In this document: positions 9,070 through 17,892 of the stretch, piece by piece
How the letters are laid out: each line of letters opens with the position of its first letter
Numbering within the stretch: the stretch's first letter is position 1
Origin: an uncultured Ruficoccus sp.
GTDB lineage: Bacteria > Verrucomicrobiota > Verrucomicrobiia > Opitutales > Cerasicoccaceae
DNA length: 64,000 bases
Direction of reading: 5' to 3'
NCBI GenBank assembly: GCA_965140785.1
Contig: OZ223510.1
Location: forward strand, 128,001-192,000
Program-made: the position numbers and the translations under genes
The notes under the pieces: generated by a model
What the model saw: only the letters and a program-made list of their open reading frames with translations
Databases searched by the model: none
Told to the model about the DNA's origin: nothing

Positions 9070-9717
9070 ATGGACAAGGAAACGGTCATTTCCTCGATTA
9101 TCGGGAGCGGTGTTATCGCCGTCGTGCGCGCCGATAGCGGCGATACCGCTCGGCGGATCGCCGAGGCGTGCCTGGAGGGTGGCGTGTCGGCCATCGAAAT
9201 CACCTTCACCGTTCCCCGGGCGCACCGGGTAATCGAAGAACTGGCGGCTACGTTTTCTCCCGACGAAATTGTGCTGGGCGCCGGGACTGTGCTCGATCCT
9301 GAAACGGCCAGGATCGCTTTGCTCAGCGGCGCTCAGTACATCGTCAGTCCGTATTTTGACCCGGAAACCATTCGCTTGTGCAACCGCTACCGGACGGTGG
9401 CGATGCCCGGAGTCATGAGTGTGCGCGAAGCCGTCCTGGCCATGGAGGCCGGGGCGGACATCCTCAAGGTGTTTCCGGGCGATCTCTTCGGACCGCAGGT
9501 CATTCGTGACTTCCGAGGCCCGCTGCCTCATGCAAAGATGATTCCGACCGGCAACGTCAACACGGCTAATATCGGGGAGTGGATCCGTGCCGGGGCCGTC
9601 GCCGCCGGGGTCGGCTCGGACCTGGTCGGCGGAGCCAAGTCCGGCGACTACGCCGCCGTCACTCGGGCCGCTGGCAACTTCCGCGATTTGGTGGAACAGG
9701 CGCGGGCCGATCTGTAA
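9070..9717 (+). CDS. eda: KDPG/KHG aldolase
   Basis: IAVVR, IEITFTVP, GAGTVLD, LKVFPG and IPTG motifs. Confidence 0.9.
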   Translation: MDKETVISSIIGSGVIAVVRADSGDTARRIAEACLEGGVSAIEITFTVPRAHRVIEELAATFSPDEIVLGAGTVLDPETARIALLSGAQYIVSPYFDPETIRLCNRYRTVAMPGVMSVREAVLAMEAGADILKVFPGDLFGPQVIRDFRGPLPHAKMIPTGNVNTANIGEWIRAGAVAAGVGSDLVGGAKSGDYAAVTRAAGNFRDLVEQARADL

Positions 9718-9858
9718 AACGTTGGAGTAGGACCCCCTGAGTGGATAGAAGCATGCAAGGGGGGGCGGGTTCTGACATCGAAGTGCCCCTGGGGCATGCG
9801 TCCAAGCTCGTATGCGGACAAGAGAAGGGAAAACCATGTCAGGGACATTGGGGTTATT

Positions 9859-10815
9859 ATGATCGATTACGGAACGATCTTTTCGGCGGTGCTGCCGGTT
9901 TTTCTATTGATCGGGATCGGCTGGTTCATGCGGGCGCGTGGGTGGTTCTCCGCCCAGGCGGAAAAGGATGTCATGCGCTTGTTCGTGTGCGTGCTCTATC
10001 CCTGTCTCATCCTGCGTTTCGTACTTGGAAACGAAGTTCTCAGGGACGGGGGACTTGTGACCGAGGCGCTCGGCACTGGCTACCTGAGTGTTGTCGCGGG
10101 TGTGCTGGTAGCGGCTTCTCTGGCCCCTTGCTTTGGGATACGGAACGCCCGCGAGCGGGGAAGTTTCGCTGTTGCCGTCGCCGTGTACAATTACGGCAAT
10201 ATTGCCATTCCTGTGGCCGCATTGTTTTTTCCAGATTCGACCGTCGGCGTCATGCTCGTGGTCAATGTCGGTATCGACTTGGCTATATGGACGCTTGGGC
10301 TAGCAGTGATGGCGGGACGGTTCAGCCGCCGGAACTCGAGGTATGCCCTTTCGCCGCCGGCTTTGGCGGTGTTTGTCGGGCTTCTGCTCAACGACGTGGG
10401 TGGCCAAGCGTTCATCCCCTCGCCTGTGCTCGGGGTGGTCGAGATGTTGGCGGCTTGCGCCATTCCGATCAGTATTTTTGTCATCGGTTCGGCTTTTTGC
10501 GAGCTGGCTCGAGAGAGCGGGATTCGATTGCGTCTCAACATTGCCCTTGGGGCCATATTTATGCGGCACTTGCTGCTACCCGTATTGATGCTAGGAACCG
10601 CATGCTTGATTCCGTTTTCTCCCGCCATCCGATGTGTGATCTTGGTGCACGCCGCCATGCCCTGCGGGATATTTCCCGTTGTATTGGCCAAACACTACGG
10701 TGGTTCGGGGAAACTTGTTTTTCAGGCGGTCATGACCAGCGGTGGACTAAGTATGCTGACCATTCCGCTGTGGATACAAATCGGATTCCGGGTGCTTGGT
10801 GTGCCTGTGCGATGA
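9859..10815 (+). CDS. AEC (auxin efflux carrier) family transporter
   Basis: Polytopic hydrophobic protein with NYGNIAIP and AAMPCG motifs. Confidence 0.85.
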   Translation: MIDYGTIFSAVLPVFLLIGIGWFMRARGWFSAQAEKDVMRLFVCVLYPCLILRFVLGNEVLRDGGLVTEALGTGYLSVVAGVLVAASLAPCFGIRNARERGSFAVAVAVYNYGNIAIPVAALFFPDSTVGVMLVVNVGIDLAIWTLGLAVMAGRFSRRNSRYALSPPALAVFVGLLLNDVGGQAFIPSPVLGVVEMLAACAIPISIFVIGSAFCELARESGIRLRLNIALGAIFMRHLLLPVLMLGTACLIPFSPAIRCVILVHAAMPCGIFPVVLAKHYGGSGKLVFQAVMTSGGLSMLTIPLWIQIGFRVLGVPVR

Positions 10816-11159: not shown

Positions 11160-11470
11160 TGACCGTGTCCACGTAAACTGGGCCGCTTGCAAAGTTAGTC
11201 TGAGTGCTTAGAAAGGACTCAGAGTATGAAAGGTAAGCGATACAGTACCGAACAGAAGATCCGTATTTTACGAGCCGCTGATGCTGGCGGAGCGATCGTT
11301 GATGTTTGCCGCGAGGCAGGAATCAGCGAGCAGGCTTTTCACCGCTGGAAGCGGGTACCGACCCTGTGCCGCTAGGTACGGCGACACTCAAGCGAAGCGA
11401 AGACAGCCTCAACCGCGAGTTGTTTTACACACTCACCGAGGCCCGCGTGGTCATCGAGGACTGGCGGCGG
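11160..11470 (+). mobile_element. IS3-family remnant (left end plus orfA start joined to an orfB C-terminal piece)
   Basis: Near-identical to 12866 onward (TGACCGTGTCCAC...MKGKRYSTEQKIR), then jumps to LNRELFYTLTEARVVIEDWR. Confidence 0.9.
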
Positions 11471-11477
11471 TCAGTCG

Positions 11478-11556
11478 AAGGGATCATGTCAAAGATTTAA
11501 ATGCTGATTGCTCCCTGGACTTGTGTAGTTTTCCTAAACTATTGACATGACCCCTT
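11478..11556. repeat. 79-bp hairpin repeat, copy 1 (diverged)
   Basis: AAGGGATCATGTCAAAGATTTA...TAAACTATTGACATGACCCCTT; about 7 substitutions versus copy 3. Confidence 0.92.
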
Positions 11557-11597
11557 GGTCTGACCCTTTAGGTACATTCGATTTACTTTAATCTAGA

Positions 11598-12689
11598 ATG
11601 AAAAAAAAATATTTAGGATTACTTTTGATTGTAGCGGCACTAGGCGTTTCTATGCCTTTTTTAAGGCATAAAGAGATTGAATCGAAAGTTGATTCTCGGC
11701 CATCTCCGGATGTTCAAAGAAATGAAAATTTTGTATCTAAAATCGATCCAAAAGATAGCAAATCGATAGAGTCAGTAGCGGCAAGTTCCGATGGCGAATT
11801 AATTGATGTTGAAAAACCAATGAACATGAGTGCCTCGGATTGGAGCTTTATGGTGAACAACCACAAGAGGTTTGCTGCTGATAATATGCCTATTAATTTT
11901 TATGGTGTTATTGTTGATCAGCAAGATATCCCAGTTGAAGGAGCAAAAGTACAAATTAAGATATCTGCCTATGATCCATCATTTTCAGCTCAATTAACCT
12001 CAGAGGGAATGAAAACTTTAGAGACAGTCATCGAGGTCGAAAGTGACAAGAATGGCATGTTTTCAATCCGAAATGAATATGGGCGTACGCTGAGGGTCTT
12101 ATCTATATCAAAATCGGGCTATGAGGCTTTGAAGTCTTTTAGATCAGGGTACTCTTATGGAAAAAGTATCGGGGACAAACATCAAGCGAATGAAAGTGAT
12201 CCTGTTCGCTTCAAGCTATGGAAAGCCTCTGAGCCTGCTGAATTAATCAAGATTGATATGGAGATAGACATTTCTGAGAGTTCCGGGCCTGTTTATCTGG
12301 ACTTGAAATCTGGAGATACATTCAGTGTTCAAAACGGGTCATCCGATCTTGAGTTGAGGATGAACTTTATCGAAAAACAGCAGTCGAATCGTTATGGTTG
12401 GGGAATCGTTATCAAGGTGTTGGATGGTGGGATTGCGCTTAGTGATGGCTTTCTTTTTGAGGCGCCAGAAGATGGTTATCTTTCAAGTATTGATTTTTTG
12501 TTTGAGCCAGAAAGCAAACAATGGACTCAACGAATCAATAAAAGGATGTTTGTAAGGAGTAGAGAAGGGAAGCTCTACGCTGGTTTAGTTTTTACTTTTT
12601 ATGCTTACCATACGGGTAACGGGAAGGCTATGTTAAAAGGTTTTTTTAATCCTAATGGTTCGAGAAATTTACAACCGCAAAAACAATAG
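11598..12689 (+). CDS. AT-rich secreted or membrane-anchored protein with carboxypeptidase-regulatory-like beta domain (cassette cargo)
   Basis: N-terminal hydrophobic helix, FYGVIVDQQDIPVEGAKVQI segment, C-terminal NPNGSRNL; visibly AT-richer than the flanks. Confidence 0.75.
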   Translation: MKKKYLGLLLIVAALGVSMPFLRHKEIESKVDSRPSPDVQRNENFVSKIDPKDSKSIESVAASSDGELIDVEKPMNMSASDWSFMVNNHKRFAADNMPINFYGVIVDQQDIPVEGAKVQIKISAYDPSFSAQLTSEGMKTLETVIEVESDKNGMFSIRNEYGRTLRVLSISKSGYEALKSFRSGYSYGKSIGDKHQANESDPVRFKLWKASEPAELIKIDMEIDISESSGPVYLDLKSGDTFSVQNGSSDLELRMNFIEKQQSNRYGWGIVIKVLDGGIALSDGFLFEAPEDGYLSSIDFLFEPESKQWTQRINKRMFVRSREGKLYAGLVFTFYAYHTGNGKAMLKGFFNPNGSRNLQPQKQ

Positions 12690-12781
12690 GCCACTTCGAT
12701 CAAGGTAGTGATTTAGATCGAGCCTTCCAGATGTGCTATTTCATATGCCCGCGAAGCGGCGTGAGAGGTCATTGAAGGGCC

Positions 12782-12851
12782 TGACCCGTTAACTTTTTAG
12801 AATAGTTGTTCATTGACAGGGACTTACAGGCGGGAAGCATTTTCGTGGTGC
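12782..12851 (+). repeat. Cassette-closing repeat, copy A
   Basis: TGACCCGTTAACTTTTTAGAATAGTTGTTCATTGAC...GTGGTGC, also found at 14393 and partly at 15153. Confidence 0.85.
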
Positions 12852-12931
12852 TGGCTGAGTCCCACTGACCGTGTCCACTTAAACTGAGCCGCTTGCAAAG
12901 TTAGTCTGAGTGCTTAGAAAGGACTCAGACG

Positions 12932-13198
12932 ATGAAAGGCAAGCGATACAGTACAGAGCAAAAAATCCGCATTTTACGCGCCGCTGATGCTGGCAGAGCG
13001 ATCGTGGATGTCTGCCGCGAGGCAGGGATCAGCGAGCAGACGTTCCACCGCTGGAAGCGGGAGCTTGGGATGCTGGAAGTCGATCAGGCCAAGCAACTGA
13101 AGGAACTGCAAAAGGAGAACGCTCGGCTGAAGCGTATGCTGGCGGACGAGATACTTGGTAAGGAGCTGCTGAAGGAGGCGCTCGAAAAAAAATGGTAA
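12932..13198 (+). CDS. IS3 transposase OrfA (HTH)
   Basis: VCREAGISEQTFHRWK HTH and LKELQKENARLKR zipper. Confidence 0.93.
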   Translation: MKGKRYSTEQKIRILRAADAGRAIVDVCREAGISEQTFHRWKRELGMLEVDQAKQLKELQKENARLKRMLADEILGKELLKEALEKKW

Positions 13199-14171
13199 GC
13201 CCTGCACACAAGCGCGAGATGGCGCAAACTCTGGTGTCGCAGGGCAGATGTTCAGCGCGGGCGGCCTGCCGTCACTTTGGGTTGCATCGCAGTACCTTCG
13301 GCTATCAGGCGAAGGAGACTACGCCCTGGTTGGCAAAGTTACGTGGGGCTTTGCGTCGCAAGAGCGAAGCGCATCCCGAGCTGGGTTACCCGAAAATCAC
13401 TCATCTACTCAAGCGCGATGGTTGGGACGTAGGTAAGCGGCTGGTGCAGCGCCTGCGCCAGGAGATGGGGCTGAAGTGTCCGACTAAGAAGCCTCGTCAG
13501 CGTCGGCGCGGCCCCTCGACGGGCTTACCGACAAAGGCTACTCATCGCAACCACGTGTGGACCTGCGACTTCGTGGCCGACCGTACGGCTAAGGGCGGAT
13601 CAATCCGCATGCTCACGGTACTCGATGAGTACACCCGTGAGTGCCTGTGCATCCACGTCGATCGCCACCTCAACGCCGCCAAGGTGCGAGCCGTCATGAG
13701 CGAGTTGATCAGTGCCTACGGCAGCCCCGAGCACATCCGTAGCGACAACGGCAGCGAGTTTATCGAGAAGAGCCTGCGTAAATGGTACGCGGACGAGGAG
13801 ATCAAGACGCTCTACATTGAGCCGGGCAGTCCCTGGCAGAACGGCTACATAGAATCCTTCAACGGCAGACTCCGCGATGAGTGCCTCACCGCGAGTGGTT
13901 TTATACGCTCACCGAGGCACGCGTCGTCATCGAGGACTGGCGATGGAAGTACAACAACATCCGACCCCACCGTTCACTCGGACTGCTCACACCACTGGAG
14001 TTTGCAGCCAAAGAAACCGCACCAACCCCCTTCGACATCAACTTCCAAGGCATGGGCTACACTCGGGCTACGCCCTCCTTCCGCCCAAGCCTTGACACCC
14101 TCTACAACCTAACCCTAAATCACATCATTAACCCGCTCAGACTAACTCTCAATGCGGTACAGTTTGCGTAG
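13192..14171 (+). pseudogene. IS3 transposase OrfB (DDE), frameshift near 13887
   Basis: WTCDF, RSDNGSEF and NGYIESFN are present; ECL continues in another frame as REWFYTLTEARVVIEDWR...RPHRSLG. Confidence 0.88.
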
Positions 14172-14179
14172 GCAGGTCA

Positions 14180-14389
14180 TCCTCTTGGGCGAGTGCTTTT
14201 TCAGGTTTTGCATCTAAATACCATGAGAATCCTAAATTAACTGAAGGAGAGATTATTGCACTATATGGTGGAATGGGCTCATTTAATGATATTATTCTCT
14301 ATCGCGGGGGAAAGGTCGCTGTGACGGAAACTAATAATTTGGACGATATGCGTTCACGCTTATTTGCTCTTTGCCGACGAAATCAATGA
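14180..14389 (+). pseudogene. 5'-truncated small protein with YGGMGSFND motif (DUF6966-like, putative immunity protein)
   Basis: Frame immediately after the IS3 end reads SSWASAFSGFASKYHENPKLTEGEIIALYGGMGSFNDIILYRGG...RLFALCRRNQ*. Confidence 0.65.
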
Positions 14390-14392
14390 GCC

Positions 14393-14463
14393 TGACCCGT
14401 TAATTTTTTAGGAATAGTTGTTCATTGACGGTCATTTAGGGATGCGCAGGTTTTTTGTGGTGC
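14393..14463 (+). repeat. Cassette-closing repeat, copy B
   Basis: TGACCCGTTAATTTTTTAGGAATAGTTGTTCATTGAC...GTGGTGC, 3 nt after the cassette stop codon. Confidence 0.85.
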
Positions 14464-14496
14464 AACCCCAGTTTCAGCTTCTCTTGGTCAAAGCAC

Positions 14497-14575
14497 AAGG
14501 AGTCATGTCAATAATTTAAATGCTGATTGCTCCCTTGACTTGTGTAGTTGTTCTAAATTATTGACATGACCCCTT
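14497..14575. repeat. 79-bp hairpin repeat, copy 2
   Basis: One substitution versus copy 3. Confidence 0.95.
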
Positions 14576-14701
14576 CAGATTCTGCGTGACGTGCGGAATA
14601 TCTATCAACAGGATGGTCTGTATACTCCGTATATTAGGCAGCAGCTTCAAGAGATGACCCGCTTGAGCAAGGAACTGTATCCTACCATTTTTGCAAAATG
14701 A
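14576..14701 (+). pseudogene. Orphan C-terminal tip of a probable polymorphic toxin (no start codon)
   Basis: QILRDVRNIYQQDGLYTPYIRQQLQEMTRLSKELYPTIFAK*; the stop overlaps the next ATG (ATGA), as in toxin-immunity pairs. Confidence 0.6.
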
Positions 14702-15141
14702 GCAGTATTGAAGAGTTAGGACTTATTTTATCTCAAAGAAAACATGGGTATATACAAGCAGTTGAACAATGCTTGGGACAGTTGTGTACTTCTGTTGACG
14801 AAAATATTTTACTTGGCCTTTTCTCCTTGTTTGACGACAGCGCAGAAGATGAGGTTATGTTCTTAATTATTCATACGGTCGAGAGCGTTGATGACGATCT
14901 CTATTGTAAATGCCTGTTTGAATCCGTCGAGTCGCTGTGGAGCCATTCTCCTCGATGGACTCAAATATTGCATATTAGAGTAATGAACTCTTTAACCACA
15001 TTAAGTGTCTACTTGAAATTATATAAGCATGCACCTCAATCACAGTGTCGTGTTGTTGATGAGATCTATAGCTCGATTGAATCTGGATGGCCAAATATTG
15101 CCGCTAAAGCACGGGCGGTCCGTGATGCCATGACGAAATAA
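14698..15141 (+). CDS. Imm30-like immunity protein
   Basis: LFDDSAEDEVMFLIIHTVES...PRWTQILHIRVMNS pattern recalled for Imm30; small AT-rich gene coupled to the upstream tip. Confidence 0.7.
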   Translation: MSSIEELGLILSQRKHGYIQAVEQCLGQLCTSVDENILLGLFSLFDDSAEDEVMFLIIHTVESVDDDLYCKCLFESVESLWSHSPRWTQILHIRVMNSLTTLSVYLKLYKHAPQSQCRVVDEIYSSIESGWPNIAAKARAVRDAMTK

Positions 15142-15152
15142 ACACCGACGGG

Positions 15153-15173
15153 TGACCCGTTAATTTTTAGGAA
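15153..15173 (+). repeat. Cassette-closing repeat, copy C (short)
   Basis: TGACCCGTTAATTTTTAGGAA, 11 nt after the immunity gene stop. Confidence 0.8.
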
Positions 15174-15598
15174 CACCAACGGCAGAACCTAGCACGTGGA
15201 GTATGCGATTTCTGAAAATCAACCTACGCGCCAACCACGGCATGTCGGATGCCAGTCTGGGAATAAACGCAGTAAAGAGCTTCTCGACTACCAACCCTCC
15301 ATGTTATGTATTCAGGAGCAAATCTCGCCTACATCTAACTGAACAACGAAACACCTTGCCCGCCTCGTGATGCTGTCCCGGTTAACCCCGAAGGCCCATT
15401 GATATCTTTCAATCTGAACCTCAGTTCCTATTCGGTAATCGTGCGACCCTTTACGCTATGTCCTTTTATTCGATGGGTAGCTTTCGAAGGAAGCAATCAT
15501 CTAGGAAGGACAAGCTGGCTGAAAATGCTCTGGTTAACAGTTTCTGAGCCTTTTTGCTCCCCGGAGAAAAACAGAGAATTTTCCGAGGGAGGGAGCAC

Positions 15599-15677
15599 AA
15601 GGGGTCATGTCAATAATTTAAATGCTGATTGCTCCCTTGACTTGTGTAGTTGTTCTAAATTATTGACATGACCCCTT
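15599..15677. repeat. 79-bp hairpin repeat, copy 3 (perfect 22-bp arms, 35-nt loop)
   Basis: AAGGGGTCATGTCAATAATTTA-N35-TAAATTATTGACATGACCCCTT. Confidence 0.97.
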
Positions 15678-16140
15678 CAGGTTACACCAACTGGATTCCG
15701 GGAGGGAACTTTGCGTTGGGGGTAAGCATGTACTTCGGTAAGCCTTGGGCGCGTCAATATGCAGGTGAATATTCGTGGAAGGGTACTATCGACTTGGGAG
15801 TAGATGCCGCCACCGCAGGGATATTCGGCATGGCTGGGAAAGGATTGAGATCCCTCCGTTTTGCCGATGAGTTCGCAGAGGGAGTGTTTGGCAGTGAACG
15901 AGGACTGGGACGTGTTACAGGTTCTTTTGATGCAATCAATCCGGGGCCACTTTCAGATGATCTTGCTGGCACATTTGCTGGGGGAAGGTATAGTGAAATT
16001 ATATTGGAATCAGATACAATCCTATACCGTGCTGGGCAAACCAATAAGCCGTTGGGTGAGTTTTTTGATACAGTTCCAGCTGAGGGTGTATTGCAATCGA
16101 GAATTGACAAAGCTATATTGCCAATTTGGCCTGGCGGTGG
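15668..16140 (+). pseudogene. Orphan Rhs-type toxin C-terminal region, truncated
   Basis: Gly/Ala-rich pre-toxin helix followed by NPGPL...ATFAGGRY...DTILYRAG...RIDKAILPIWPGGG-type segment; similarity breaks after WPGGG. Confidence 0.6.
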
Positions 16141-16442
16141 CTGCGACTTTGGTCGGAGACTTCATCTATATCATCGGCGCACTCGGGTATCCTGATTCGC
16201 GGAAACACGATTTTACCCCAGTTTATCGACTTTCCCTCGAAGACTACAGTATTGAATGTGTCGAGACGTCAGGTTCGGCGCCGGGGTGGATTTATCGGCA
16301 CCGAGCAATACTCCAAGCAGACAATGTAATCCGTATTAGCGGAGGGTTGAAGGAGATCAAAGGTAAAGGCGAGGTGTTGCATATTGAGAATCAGCAGACA
16401 TACGAGTTGGACCTCATAAAACGCTTGTGGACAGCGGTTTGA
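16138..16442 (+). pseudogene. C-terminal fragment of an unrelated gene fused out of frame
   Basis: Second frame reads ATLVGDFIYIIGALGYP...TPVYRLSL...PGWIYRHRA with no start of its own. Confidence 0.5.
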
Positions 16443-16457
16443 TCGGCACCCACGGCC

Positions 16458-17462
16458 CTATGCTTGCGGATTGGGGGCGGGAGTGGCAGGAGTGGAGTGG
16501 ACATCCGTGATGGAGATGATATTTCGGCGGGTGTCGTCGGCGTAGTGGGCGTAGTCCTTGTCCATTTTCGGGGGGACTTTGGACTCGATGACAAAGGAGC
16601 CGGTGGCCTTCTCCTTAAACGTCTCCAGAATCTTCAATAGGCCCGGATCGACGGGGACGGCCCCGATGGAGGTTTCGGTTTTGACGGAAAAGAACGTATG
16701 CGGGGCGATGACGATTTCTCCCCTGACTGCATCGACAGATTCCCAGAGCAGTTCGCCGACATCGATTTGGCTACGGTAACGCATGGATGACGACTTTAGC
16801 ATCTCGACATCGGCAAAGGGCAGGGGGGTGGGGAGCTCCATTTCCTTGAGGAGTCCGGTAATCTTGGGGCTGAACAGCGAGCGTGCGTTGCGGACAATCG
16901 AATTCGCGGTGTGCTCTGCTTTACGAATCTTGACCGGGTCATGCTGGGCCTTGGCGATTTCCGATTTCTGCCACTAGCGGATGCGGTCGGCGGTCAGGTA
17001 GCCGAGCGGGGTCTTATCGACCGCTTCACGCCATTTGAGGTGGTGTTTGTGGAAGTGGTCGTACCGCTCCTTGGTTTGAGGGATACCCTTGATGTCTGCC
17101 ACGAGGGTGCGCAGCTTCCGGCAATAGGTGGTAAAGGTTTTGGGGTTGAGGTTGGCACGCTCCTCGACGGCTTTTAGGTATTCCCCGAGGGTGACTGCTT
17201 TGACTTTGACCGCCATCTCCCCCTTAAACTCGCGGATAGTTTTATCCCAGCCGTTCGCCTTCAGGCTGATGTAAATGGCCGCTGCCCGCTTCGCTGCCTT
17301 CACCTGGTTATTGCTCCCGAGCTGGAACCACTCCCTGCGGCCCCGGTGCTGGATGTACACCTGAAACTCTTCGACCGTGGTTGCAGAGCCATCGGTTGCC
17401 TTGTAGCTGCGCTTCTTGATGCGCGACATCCAGTAGTCTTGGTGGGTTTTGGAGATGGCCAT
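16458..17462 (-). pseudogene. Tyrosine recombinase/integrase pseudogene
   Basis: ORFs 16974-17462 and 16458-16841 share a frame, broken by one TAG; N-terminal arm-type and core-binding-like regions plus VKTETS...VPV; no catalytic R or HxxR box visible. Confidence 0.7.
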
Positions 17463-17892
17463 CGTTTTTGAGCTTGGGGTGGGTGAAACGTGGGGACTCG
17501 TTTCAGCGCAAAATCACTGTGCCATATTTCAAGCCCTTTAAACGGGCCTTTTGTGGCCAATCGAGGCCTGTCTGAACCGAGCCGGACCTTTCGATGCCCC
17601 TGCCGCGGAGTGCTGGGCCCGTGGCACATCGATCCGGTCACCACTGAAAATGAGAACGCTCAAGCTGAGTCGTCGAACGCAGCAGGTGCTCGTTACATTT
17701 TTCTGGTCAATGAGGATAATAATCTCTTAGTGGAAAATACACCCGGCTGCCCGGCCCGGCAGCGAATGTTCACCGTTTTCCGTTCCAGCCAATCTAAATT
17801 CAAGGCGAAAAATTCGCCGGTCTTGTTCTGACGCTCTGTCGGCCAGCCAAGGCTTAGCGAGGCAGAAAGACTCATACGGATCATTGATAAAA

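Follow-up and report, generated by a model that had tools for sequence, protein, structure and literature searches.

The 64,000-nucleotide stretch analyzed here (the window; positions 128,001 to 192,000 of contig OZ223510.1 from an uncultured Ruficoccus sp.) contains, between positions 11478 and 16442, an island of low-GC genes parted by three hairpins. The locus raises the question of what these hairpins are and whether they take part in bringing in the genes beside them. The original prediction was of an integron-like library of toxin ends and immunity genes, inserted at a fixed position in the hairpin by a site-specific enzyme. Here, each 79-bp hairpin is found to be a pair of ∼26-nt TIRtron terminal inverted repeats (GAAGGGGTCATGTCAATAATTTAAAT; hereafter termed arms), and the hairpins are internal-deletion relics of TIRtrons, the enzyme of which is encoded elsewhere in the genome. 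This assignment follows because the TIRtron, at its inner left end, matches the start of the 79-mer loop and because a 190-bp version of the element in a congener, G003, retains the first ∼20 and the last ∼15 codons of the enzyme gene.

The genome of the window (G000) was compared with 60 other genomes (61 in total). Four congeners (G001-G004) were compared by DNA search; the relatives are few and are mutually related. Arms were counted at a threshold of ≤4 mismatches, and those within one of the seven G000 loci are not independent of each other. Gene calls in loci taken from relatives are greedy open reading frame (ORF) picks of our own, and the annotation of cargo, made with Pfam families and sequence comparison, is partial.

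Hairpins of the window island

A repeat search returned a 90-nt family with copies at 11473, 14492 and 15594; relative to copy 2, identity is 82% for copy 1 and 98% for copy 3. The 79-bp hairpins within them start at 11478, 14497 and 15599, each with inverted arms of 22 nt and a loop of 35 nt. The features are as follows.

11477..11557, plus strand: hairpin 1, made of two TIRtron arms; it has diverged most of the three, and its palindrome reaches GGTCAG...CTGACC (repeat search, D2 and I5; folding)
14496..14576, plus strand: hairpin 2 (repeat search, D2 and I8; folding)
15598..15678, plus strand: hairpin 3, with perfect 22-nt arms (repeat search, I6; folding)

Arm complementarity is 100% in hairpin 3 (I6), 95% in hairpin 2 (I8) and 81% over 31 nt in hairpin 1 (I5). 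Folding as single-stranded DNA gave −21.4, −16.1 and −18.0 kcal/mol for the three hairpins (z = −5.3, −4.1 and −4.9), and 0/200 shuffles folded as well. The GC content is 0.37-0.42 downstream of each hairpin, compared with 0.55-0.65 in the flanks. Repeat search and base composition together confirm the three predicted hairpins and the different AT-rich cargo that follows each of them. An outward promoter (TTGACA) within the arm was considered and rejected, as the promoter scan marks no site at the arms and finds 7 sites in the region against a mean of 6.7 in shuffled sequence.

The strength of the predicted hairpins would suit a role in RNA or transcription, i.e. as terminators, insulators or 3′ stabilizers between co-oriented immunity genes, as proposed for repetitive extragenic palindromic (REP) sequences. 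The position of the left arm, 0-110 nt past the stop codon of the preceding gene in most cassettes, agrees with such a role, as do palindromes that abut gene ends in a metagenome lineage considered below. Yet the hairpins lack a T-run behind them and are not marked by the terminator scan. No Rfam family matches the hairpin region, the sole match being a chance long non-coding RNA (E 0.32), and the truncated genes and the RHS linkage described below are left unexplained. A role of this kind is considered quite improbable.

The TIRtron and its enzyme

According to the accessible text of Di Nocera et al. (2013), RAYT-like genes with terminal inverted repeats are termed TIRYTs and the whole unit a TIRtron, the repeats having the tip GGGGWSAS and forming small families of singles, dimers and clusters (PMC3733652). 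In the portions available, Quentin et al. (2018) placed TIRYTs in TnpA_REP subclass 2.1, which is RAYT Group 1 of Bertels et al. (2017) (PMC6006769; PMC5581495).

Two elements of 1006 nt, 99.0% identical to each other and ending exactly at arms, are present in G000 (C43:224653-225658 and C10:480k). Each consists of two arms (26 nt or more) in inverted orientation, about 1 kb apart, around a gene for a 308-amino acid protein. This protein matches the Pfam family Y1_Tnp (4.4e-9; 36.9 bits, above the cut-off of 23), and, among NCBIfam models, REP_Tyr_transpos scores best (1e-17; 64.3 bits, short of its cut-off of 80), ahead of IS200 at 18.6 bits. An HUH motif is found at H62-Y63-H64, and the segment NYVHLNP aligns, weakly (E 0.19), with DYIYINP of Escherichia coli TnpA_REP (PDB 4ER8). 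About 175 residues lie beyond the Y1 core, in which no Pfam family is found at E ≤ 0.01. Judged by these matches, the element is a TIRtron encoding a TIRYT, a putative RAYT-like HUH/Y1 single-strand DNA transposase. The HUH/RAYT-type enzyme that had been predicted to act in trans is thus encoded in the genome, in two copies with exactly these arms. The two gene copies (C43:224708-225634 and C10:480129-481055) differ at residue 103, Cys versus Arg in a QG(R/C)YKAL motif, and at one other residue.

The arm tip reads GGGGTCA(G/T). The form GGGGTCAG occurs in the copy at C10:480076 as well as in numerous arms of G000 and of related genomes, and the form GGGGTCAT, the last letter of which deviates from GGGGWSAS, in most other G000 arms. 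When oriented alike, all arms read ...TGACCCCTTC(G/A)G at the foot. On direct reading, the arm is not self-complementary except at ATTTAAAT and contains no GTAG. A direct target duplication was not seen around the hairpins; their flanks extend the inverted repeat or carry one-sided tandem copies of the foot.

The TIRYT family is large, comprising at least 6949 proteins at E ≤ 1e-10, which carry the source names “transposase” or “RayT,” and homologues occur in 17 of the 61 genomes. Inverted repeats of 28-35 nt flank seven of the eight tested loci of homologues at 40-50% identity (10 repeats of 14-35 nt were returned), and most of the inverted repeats around such homologues begin AAGGGGTCAG.

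Arms, low-GC islands and joints in G000

The genome of the window contains 29 arms, distributed over seven loci on five contigs and including 10 full dimers. Low-GC DNA is present in all seven loci, and the 300 nt on the foot (GGGGTCA) side have a GC content below 0.45 at 21 of the 29 arms, compared with 5.1% of genome windows. As the genome search for further copies established, all other copies, like those of the window, stand beside low-GC DNA, much of it small genes. The cargo families identified are Imm30, an AHH-like end (weak, E 0.005) with DUF4274, Sel1-repeat, HEPN and DUF3997; many small cargo ORFs have no family. DUF4274, Sel1, HEPN and SUKH are taken here to be toxin or immunity families of polymorphic-toxin systems. 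The notion of a toxin/immunity library holds in part: several small cargo genes are of this type, but the 363-amino acid protein of the window is not.

Several recognizable sequences are cut off at a foot or a few bases away from it. Among them are three toxin ends, one at C10 (C10a) and the others behind hairpins 2 and 3, and the deleted IS3-family copy of the window. In G002, a tandem left-arm copy together with the first 38 enzyme codons is joined to the foot of the next arm. Cargo had been predicted to begin in mid-gene exactly at the foot; this is so at two of the three window hairpins but not at hairpin 1, where a complete gene begins 41 nt past the foot.

The foot itself is frequently duplicated. 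A second GACCC lies within 35 nt outside the foot at 10 of the 29 arms, against a background of 2.7%, and the extra copies form tandem units of 13-19 nt that consist of the foot and a few flanking bases. Such duplications also occur in other genera, with up to five units in G009, and the number of units differs between two paralogous copies in G003. The lone arms at island edges are uniformly oriented: in G000, all five have the foot toward low-GC cargo and the ATTTAAAT end toward the chromosome, and the edge arms of G001-G003 and G007 are oriented likewise. Behind the single RHS gene of the genome (2203 amino acids; C10) and its 68-amino acid downstream ORF (putative immunity), a hairpin follows at 58 nt; the locus continues with a pair of ORFs of 65 and 105 amino acids and then a second, inverted hairpin.

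Two further properties of the arm were considered and set aside. As a start codon for captured toxin ends, the ATG of the arm is unconvincing, since an ORF of ≥50 codons is found in the ATG frame at 13/57 feet and in the other open frame at 8/57. Mimicry of RHS core-end DNA by the foot (GAC CCC TTC GGG TT, i.e. DPFGL) is probably a coincidence: such DNA is found in one of five RHS genes (G007), the feet of other genera do not continue the pattern, and the toxin ends are open in another frame.

The main rival to any active role of the arms is passive colonization. Here, selfish TIRtron copies resembling REPINs (hairpin-forming REP doublets) or miniature inverted-repeat transposable elements (MITEs) would insert behind genes and survive in this genus only in dispensable, AT-rich acquired islands; the arrays would arise by Rhs-type end displacement and decay, and the hairpins would move no cargo. 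Consistent with this, the islands are full of other mobile debris (IS3, two kinds of insertion sequence (IS) ends and a 3-kb multi-copy element), no cassette is common to different arrays, and the arms of the metagenome lineage lie in ordinary intergenic DNA beside normal gene ends. TIRtron-derived singles, dimers and clusters are, moreover, already on record in the accessible text of PMC3733652. Passive colonization does not, however, explain the foot-to-cargo polarity of lone edge arms (5/5 in G000; also G001-G003 and G007), the toxin genes, IS3 copy and enzyme gene that end at or near arm feet, or the occurrence, among roughly 4000 genes, of the single TIRYT or fragment of each of G003, G008, G009 and G013 directly behind an RHS/immunity pair. 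It is regarded as possible but not probable.

RHS linkage and cargo turnover in relatives

An arm was found in four of the 60 other genomes, namely three of the four congeners and one other genus of the family; an exact-arm scan of reference genomes returned one other genome only, with three loci on two contigs. The arm-bearing relatives have either low-GC genes between arms with inward feet or an arm after a giant protein and a small ORF. The giant proteins are RHS proteins in G003 (2525 amino acids) and G007 (1814 amino acids) and, in G003, a 1796-amino acid protein without an RHS match.

Within the family of the window, a TIRYT or a fragment of one lies directly behind an RHS gene and a small putative immunity ORF in G003, G008, G009 and G013, which represent three genera, and in G014 a TIRYT or fragment lies behind a PT-HINT toxin end and a SUKH-1 immunity gene. 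An arm alone is found behind RHS and a small ORF in G007, and G009 has an arm also behind a haemagglutinin-repeat protein. In G000 (C43) and G002, the TIRYT gene or a fragment is in or beside cassette arrays. The arm begins 35-110 nt past the stop codon of the small ORF in five of six RHS loci, and the enzyme gene and the toxin gene have the same orientation in four of four. The RHS loci are not simply orthologous: in comparisons between genomes, alignment is restricted to the core end and the TIRtron.

The search of related Verrucomicrobiota found the same layout again and revealed turnover of cargo at one site, upstream of gltB, which has different cargo in two species and none in two. In G000, three cassettes lie there between a lone right arm and a lone left arm. 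In G002, there is one different cassette (weakly Imm74-like); its left arm, 11-24 nt past the stop codon of the neighboring gene, hardly differs in position from that of G000. Nothing stands at this site in G004, an unrelated gene occupies it in G003, and what is probably a degraded arm (TTAAAATTATTG...CCCC) is seen in G001. G003 and G004 lack the C48 cassette of G000 and have gaps of 226 and 403 bp, respectively, in its place. Distant homologues of the 363-amino acid protein aside, 0/21 G000 cargo ORFs match the arrays fetched from relatives, and DNA searches of the four congeners did not recover any cargo from the islands of the window, C12, C43 or C48.

These alignments bear on a further possibility, in which the arms act as portable homology. 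As short conserved 3′ sequences, they would allow modules to be swapped by homologous recombination after DNA uptake, with no enzyme acting on them and with crossovers in the conserved RHS core on the left and in the arm or TIRtron on the right. The RHS genes do align at the core end only (about 400-560 nt, 73-79% identity), the TIRtron region aligns (74%, G009 versus G013) while the module between differs, and the left arm upstream of gltB is at nearly the same spot in G000 and G002 with different cargo. Against this, arms of 26 nt are short for homologous recombination, and the tandem foot duplications, the truncations at feet and the arrays distant from RHS genes are not explained. Portable homology is therefore thought unlikely to account for the arrays.

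Two observations from other genomes concern the same genes. In G001, ∼240-nt spacers between arms (L013:8930-9170 and 9700-9950) carry a near-identical RHS YD-repeat fragment (FIYDADGNLKLDGRW...WDAENRLIAM). G052 has 45 TIRYT matches, many clustered within 135-170 kb, and yet a single RHS gene, which suggests a proliferating TIRYT branch not tied to RHS.

Cargo and mobile debris of the window island

Besides the hairpins, the island comprises the following features.

11160..11466, plus strand: IS3-family remnant with an internal deletion, stopping 3 nt short of the extended arm of hairpin 1 (D1, 11160-11355; D4, 11412-11466)
11598..12689, plus strand: complete ORF of 363 amino acids, GC about 0.39, starting 41 nt past the foot of hairpin 1; no Pfam family
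12782..12865, plus strand: second repeat, copy a (TGACCCGTTAAC...), read as the remnant of an IS-like element end (D5, D6)
12866..14179, plus strand: IS3-family insertion sequence with terminal inverted repeats (I4); orfA, 12932-13198, and orfB, 13192-14112 (HTH_Tnp_1, 1.9e-22; rve, 7.5e-21)
14180..14389, plus strand: 3′ remnant of a low-GC gene interrupted by the IS3 element; open frame 14132-14389
14393..14486, plus strand: second repeat, copy b, 79% identical over 94 nt to the C50 copy (repeat and genome search)
14570..14701, plus strand: open frame of 43 amino acids from the foot of hairpin 2, with TGA immediately upstream; read, by position only, as the 3′ end of a toxin gene
14698..15141, plus strand: Imm30-family immunity gene (PF15565, 2e-14; 53.9 bits, cut-off 27)
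15153..15215, plus strand: second repeat, copy c, limited to its first ∼20 nt; from 15197 on, it is followed by the left end of a different IS-like repeat (genome repeat search)
15668..16147, plus strand: toxin remnant, open from an ATG inside the right arm of hairpin 3, its domain cut after WPGGG (73% identity to an RHS C terminus)
16140..16442, plus strand: 3′ portion of a Kelch-like gene, lying in a different frame and forming the end of ORF 15861-16442 (PF24681, 3.9e-6; 26.8 bits, below the cut-off of 50)

The 363-amino acid protein behind hairpin 1 has homologues of 25-31% identity in seven of the 60 other genomes, none of them within its own family, and its closest Atlas clusters are labeled “hypothetical protein.” By these matches, it is a member of a Verrucomicrobiota family without assigned function. 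Parts D1 and D4 of the IS3 remnant are each 91% identical to the full copy, at 12866-13061 and 13888-13942, respectively. The deleted and full copies (11160-14179) are in direct orientation and enclose hairpin 1 and the 363-amino acid gene in a layout like that of a composite transposon; this non-toxin gene could have arrived between the two IS3 copies.

The second cargo had been described as a 41-amino acid toxin-like tip with an Imm30-like gene. The immunity gene is supported by its Pfam match, and the tip, a frame of 43 amino acids, is toxin-like by position only; its stop codon overlaps the start of the Imm30 gene (ATGA). The third cargo had been called Rhs-like. In ORF 15668-16195, residues 79-159 share 73% identity (81 residues) with the toxin domain at the C terminus of one RHS protein, but no RHS repeats are present, and the domain is also carried by Hcp, PAAR-like and haemagglutinin-repeat proteins; full-length relatives run about 55 residues further. 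The Kelch-like 3′ part, to which the cut domain is fused, is probably a remnant of the partner gene. Taken as a whole, the window island appears to be an array of such modules, later disrupted by an IS3-family element and by the ends of other IS-like repeats.

The gene beside the right edge of the island (16458-17644, minus strand) is split into ORFs of 127, 162 and 114 amino acids. G002 and G003 have a single 430-amino acid ORF in its place (judged in G002 by size and position only), and the gene may be a pseudogene in G000.

Other repeats and mobile elements adjoin the cassette loci. At the C48 locus, an intergenic segment of ∼140 nt (L006:8617-8757), on the opposite side of the cassette, is inverted relative to G003, and another GC-rich hairpin repeat of 90-120 nt (L006:9735-9856), with copies in G001 and G002, stands at the right edge of the cassette. 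A multi-copy element beside two cassette loci, about 3 kb long at L004:9331-12189, encodes DUF932-like and PD-(D/E)XK proteins; a related stretch of ∼0.7 kb lies at L001:11792-12616. G001 has at least five copies of the multi-copy element, and in G003 it stands at numerous contig ends.

The second repeat and the integron question

In the original prediction, cargo ended at a second repeat, TGACCCGTTAA(Y)TTTTTAG, so that direct TGACCC hexamers would bracket the two complete cargos. This repeat is indeed present at 12782, 14393 and 15153 (D6), but does not mark a cassette end: two further copies, which bring the genomic total to five, lie 0-5 nt past the stop codons of ordinary genes on contigs without any arm. 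Nor does the cargo of hairpin 1 end at 14393, as that copy ends a separate cargo remnant truncated by the IS3 element (12866-14179). The repeat is conserved for about 75-100 nt, the leader that it runs into is itself a repeat of at least 10 copies, and about 110 nt into the C50 copy there is a short transposase-like OrfA fragment. We read TGACCCGTTAA as the end of an unrelated IS-like element and not as part of the hairpin system. On this reading, the direct TGACCC bracketing of cargo is most likely a coincidence. In a multi-copy IS-like element (C26:178680, C4:167417 and others), a short GC-rich hairpin insert (GGTACCGAACTGAGGC...) breaks the OrfA gene about 20 codons from its start.

The second repeat, read as part of another element, speaks against an integron-like system, in which a tyrosine recombinase would insert cassettes at an attC-like hairpin with TGACCC as its core site. 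Such a system would be in keeping with co-oriented single or paired small genes parted by a structured repeat and with a GC skew like that of Bacteroidales rAID-1 arrays, as given in the available text of the report (10.1101/471110). No integrase above the family cut-off was found, however: the best match to the integron integrase model (TIGR02249) scores 84.4 bits against a cut-off of 265 and lies about 29 kb from the nearest arm locus. Pfam scans of the neighbors of all G000 arrays returned no recombinase, the sole Phage_integrase match being a fragment beside the second TIRtron. The arms, by eye, are near-perfect repeats of 22-26 nt that end TGACCCCTTC, without a GTTRRRY core. A tyrosine recombinase system is largely refuted and is given very little credence. 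The integron-like reading as a whole is borne out in its layout and in its HUH/Y1 enzyme, but not in its second repeat, its integrase or its fixed junction.

Proposed mechanism and points against it

The ends of genes at arm feet and the tandem foot copies raise the question of whether the enzyme is involved in making these joints. On the evidence of the sequences, the chances that it actively does so are judged to be about even. The following minimal model may be considered. TIRYT, supplied in trans, would cut an arm on one strand, at its GGGGTCA/TGACCCC foot, and join the cut strand to other DNA. Neighboring genes would thereby be cut off exactly at the foot, and short tandem foot duplications would be left. 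New modules of toxin end and immunity gene would be placed beside existing arms, with older ones pushed downstream, and arm-bounded blocks could reach new chromosomal sites. In this family, the TIRtron stands directly behind RHS toxin/immunity pairs in the same reading direction, and its arms would mark the joints between modules of truncated toxin end and immunity gene.

Cleavage by HUH/Y1 enzymes such as IS608 TnpA and TnpA_REP takes place at the hairpin base. When the DNA is single-stranded, a right arm might pair with the left arm of the next hairpin, which would bring the feet to the ends of the cargo; the chemistry that excises a hairpin could therefore excise or join the cargo segment. 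In a variant of this model, a module of toxin end, immunity gene and TIRtron would enter by homologous recombination in the RHS core, and its far end would be joined at the foot of a right arm, the old toxin end being left truncated there. In its full form, the TIRtron would be the working part of an HUH-based system of gene-end capture, by which modules are joined behind RHS-type genes, older ones are displaced and modules are exported. Active capture of cassettes is plausible, and this full form is put forward tentatively, as a proposal that we would not call probable.

A series of observations weighs against capture. Named toxin or immunity families are found in a minority of cargo ORFs, and the first cargo of the window is of neither kind. 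At C48, both elements keep the left arm and the loop and lose the right arm after TCTAAA, where the AHH-like end starts; the joints there are therefore inside the hairpin and not at the foot, contrary to the prediction of one fixed junction. One of the two G000 TIRtrons is in an unrelated island, beside an integrase fragment, an AbiEii-like ATPase and a methylase. No RHS gene lies upstream at five of six G000 island loci, and none of 14 TIRYT loci (about 16 copies, eight genomes) from other families of the order has an RHS neighbor.

Products that capture might leave were likewise not seen. Circles and empty sites had been proposed as things to look for; no circle, foot-to-foot empty site or shared cassette was found. 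No foot-to-foot empty site is present among the arm positions listed in five genomes, in which no dedicated search was made. No circle, excision scar or population variant was seen in the two of eight runs that contain the region, both of them kept as contigs; joints in the runs such as 15191→15599 and 15678→15599 are explained by other genomic copies of the arm.

The metagenome lineage provides a final point on this side. A scan of metagenomes for the arm returned 27 loci, most from organisms with a GC content of ∼0.68 and a few on contigs of ∼0.45. In the ∼0.68 lineage, arms alike at 24 of 26 nt form perfect palindromes of 58-71 bp between ordinary genes; these abut the ends of normal genes, and a TIRYT of 55% identity lies between such arms. 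The element itself is therefore REPIN-like, toxin cargo is not required, and the toxin link is specific to the family of the window. The central 12-25 nt of these palindromes (L060-L083) vary between copies and yet are always palindromic, e.g. GTGCGGCGCGCCGCAC and GTCCGCCCGGGCGGAC, so both halves change together.

The recurrence of TIRtrons beside toxin/immunity genes nevertheless hints at an undescribed route of gene collection. In the parts consulted of PMC3733652, PMC6006769 and PMC5581495, no biological role is established for TIRYTs (RAYT Group 1). The renewal of orphan immunity genes and spare toxin ends has so far been tied to homologous recombination and to a tyrosine recombinase of Bacteroidales; the repeated link between TIRtrons and RHS modules in several genera is a concrete candidate mechanism, and the arm provides a sequence handle for finding such islands. 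If capture were true, it would be a functional counterpart of integrons and rAID-1 built on a wholly different enzyme and would give a role to the very large RAYT Group 1/subclass 2.1 family. If the link were passive, the locus would still be a clear example of TIRtron decay into hairpin repeats.

Comparison with known systems

Like integrons and CALINs (clusters of attC sites lacking an integrase), the arrays described here consist of co-oriented cassettes parted by hairpin-forming repeats. Unlike them, they have no IntI, no attI/Pc platform and, by eye, no imperfect site of the attC type with a GTTRRRY core.

Arrays of orphan toxin ends and immunity genes behind rhs and cdiA have reportedly been described by Jackson (2009), Poole (2011) and Koskiniemi (2014) as “C-terminal displacement.” The classical orphans keep core-encoding DNA that permits homologous switching. 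The C10 locus resembles them in its 5′-truncated toxin ends, each with an immunity gene, behind a full RHS gene, and here too AT-rich modules stand in a GC-rich genome. By contrast, the orphans reported here start at a non-coding arm with stop codons in all three frames and have no YD or core sequence, and most arrays, including that of the window, which has no RHS gene, are far from any RHS gene.

The rAID-1 arrays are likewise low-GC arrays of orphan immunity genes with repeated intergenic sequences and strain-to-strain turnover, to judge from the available text of Ross et al. (2019; 10.1101/471110). The arrays here are short, with one to four modules, and hold toxin-gene remnants beside the immunity genes. 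Whereas that text places a XerD-family tyrosine recombinase at one end of rAID-1 arrays, the repeats here are the ends of an HUH element, and no recombinase was found in or beside the arrays examined.

In REPIN/RAYT systems of Pseudomonas and enterobacteria, as in the elements described here, inverted hairpin doublets derive from the repeats that flank a Y1 gene and are presumably moved in trans (accessible portions of PMC5581495 and PMC8049555). Set against what those portions say, the arms here differ in that they are not small palindromes and have no GTAG tag, and they number only 29 in the genome, where REPINs number tens to hundreds; there are two copies of the enzyme gene, 99% identical, unlike the single-copy, vertically inherited RAYT. 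As in a MITE, the hairpin is a deletion derivative that has the ends of an autonomous element, but the direct target duplication that flanks a MITE was not seen.

The closest known system is the TIRtron itself. The elements of G000 share with published TIRtrons and TIRYTs an enzyme of ∼300 amino acids of the Y1/HUH type, related to TnpA_REP, terminal inverted repeats tipped by GGGGWSAS on either side of its gene, and repeats found elsewhere as singles, dimers and clusters. They differ in that most arms end GGGGTCAT, with the last letter off the published motif, and in that no C-terminal helix-turn-helix domain (of the Bac_DnaA_C, HTH_23 or HTH_28 type) is found by Pfam at E ≤ 0.01. In addition, the repeats occur only in low-GC islands here, and in several genera the gene follows a pair of RHS toxin and immunity genes, whereas the consulted parts of PMC3733652, PMC6006769 and PMC5581495 report no toxin/immunity link for theirs. 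In the searchable literature, which leaves other papers uncovered, no link of RAYT or TIRYT to polymorphic toxins, Rhs or orphan immunity was found; an E. coli mobilome study, in the part seen, treats REP and rhs separately. The element of the window is thus of a known kind, with an apparently unreported, lineage-specific link to toxin/immunity modules.

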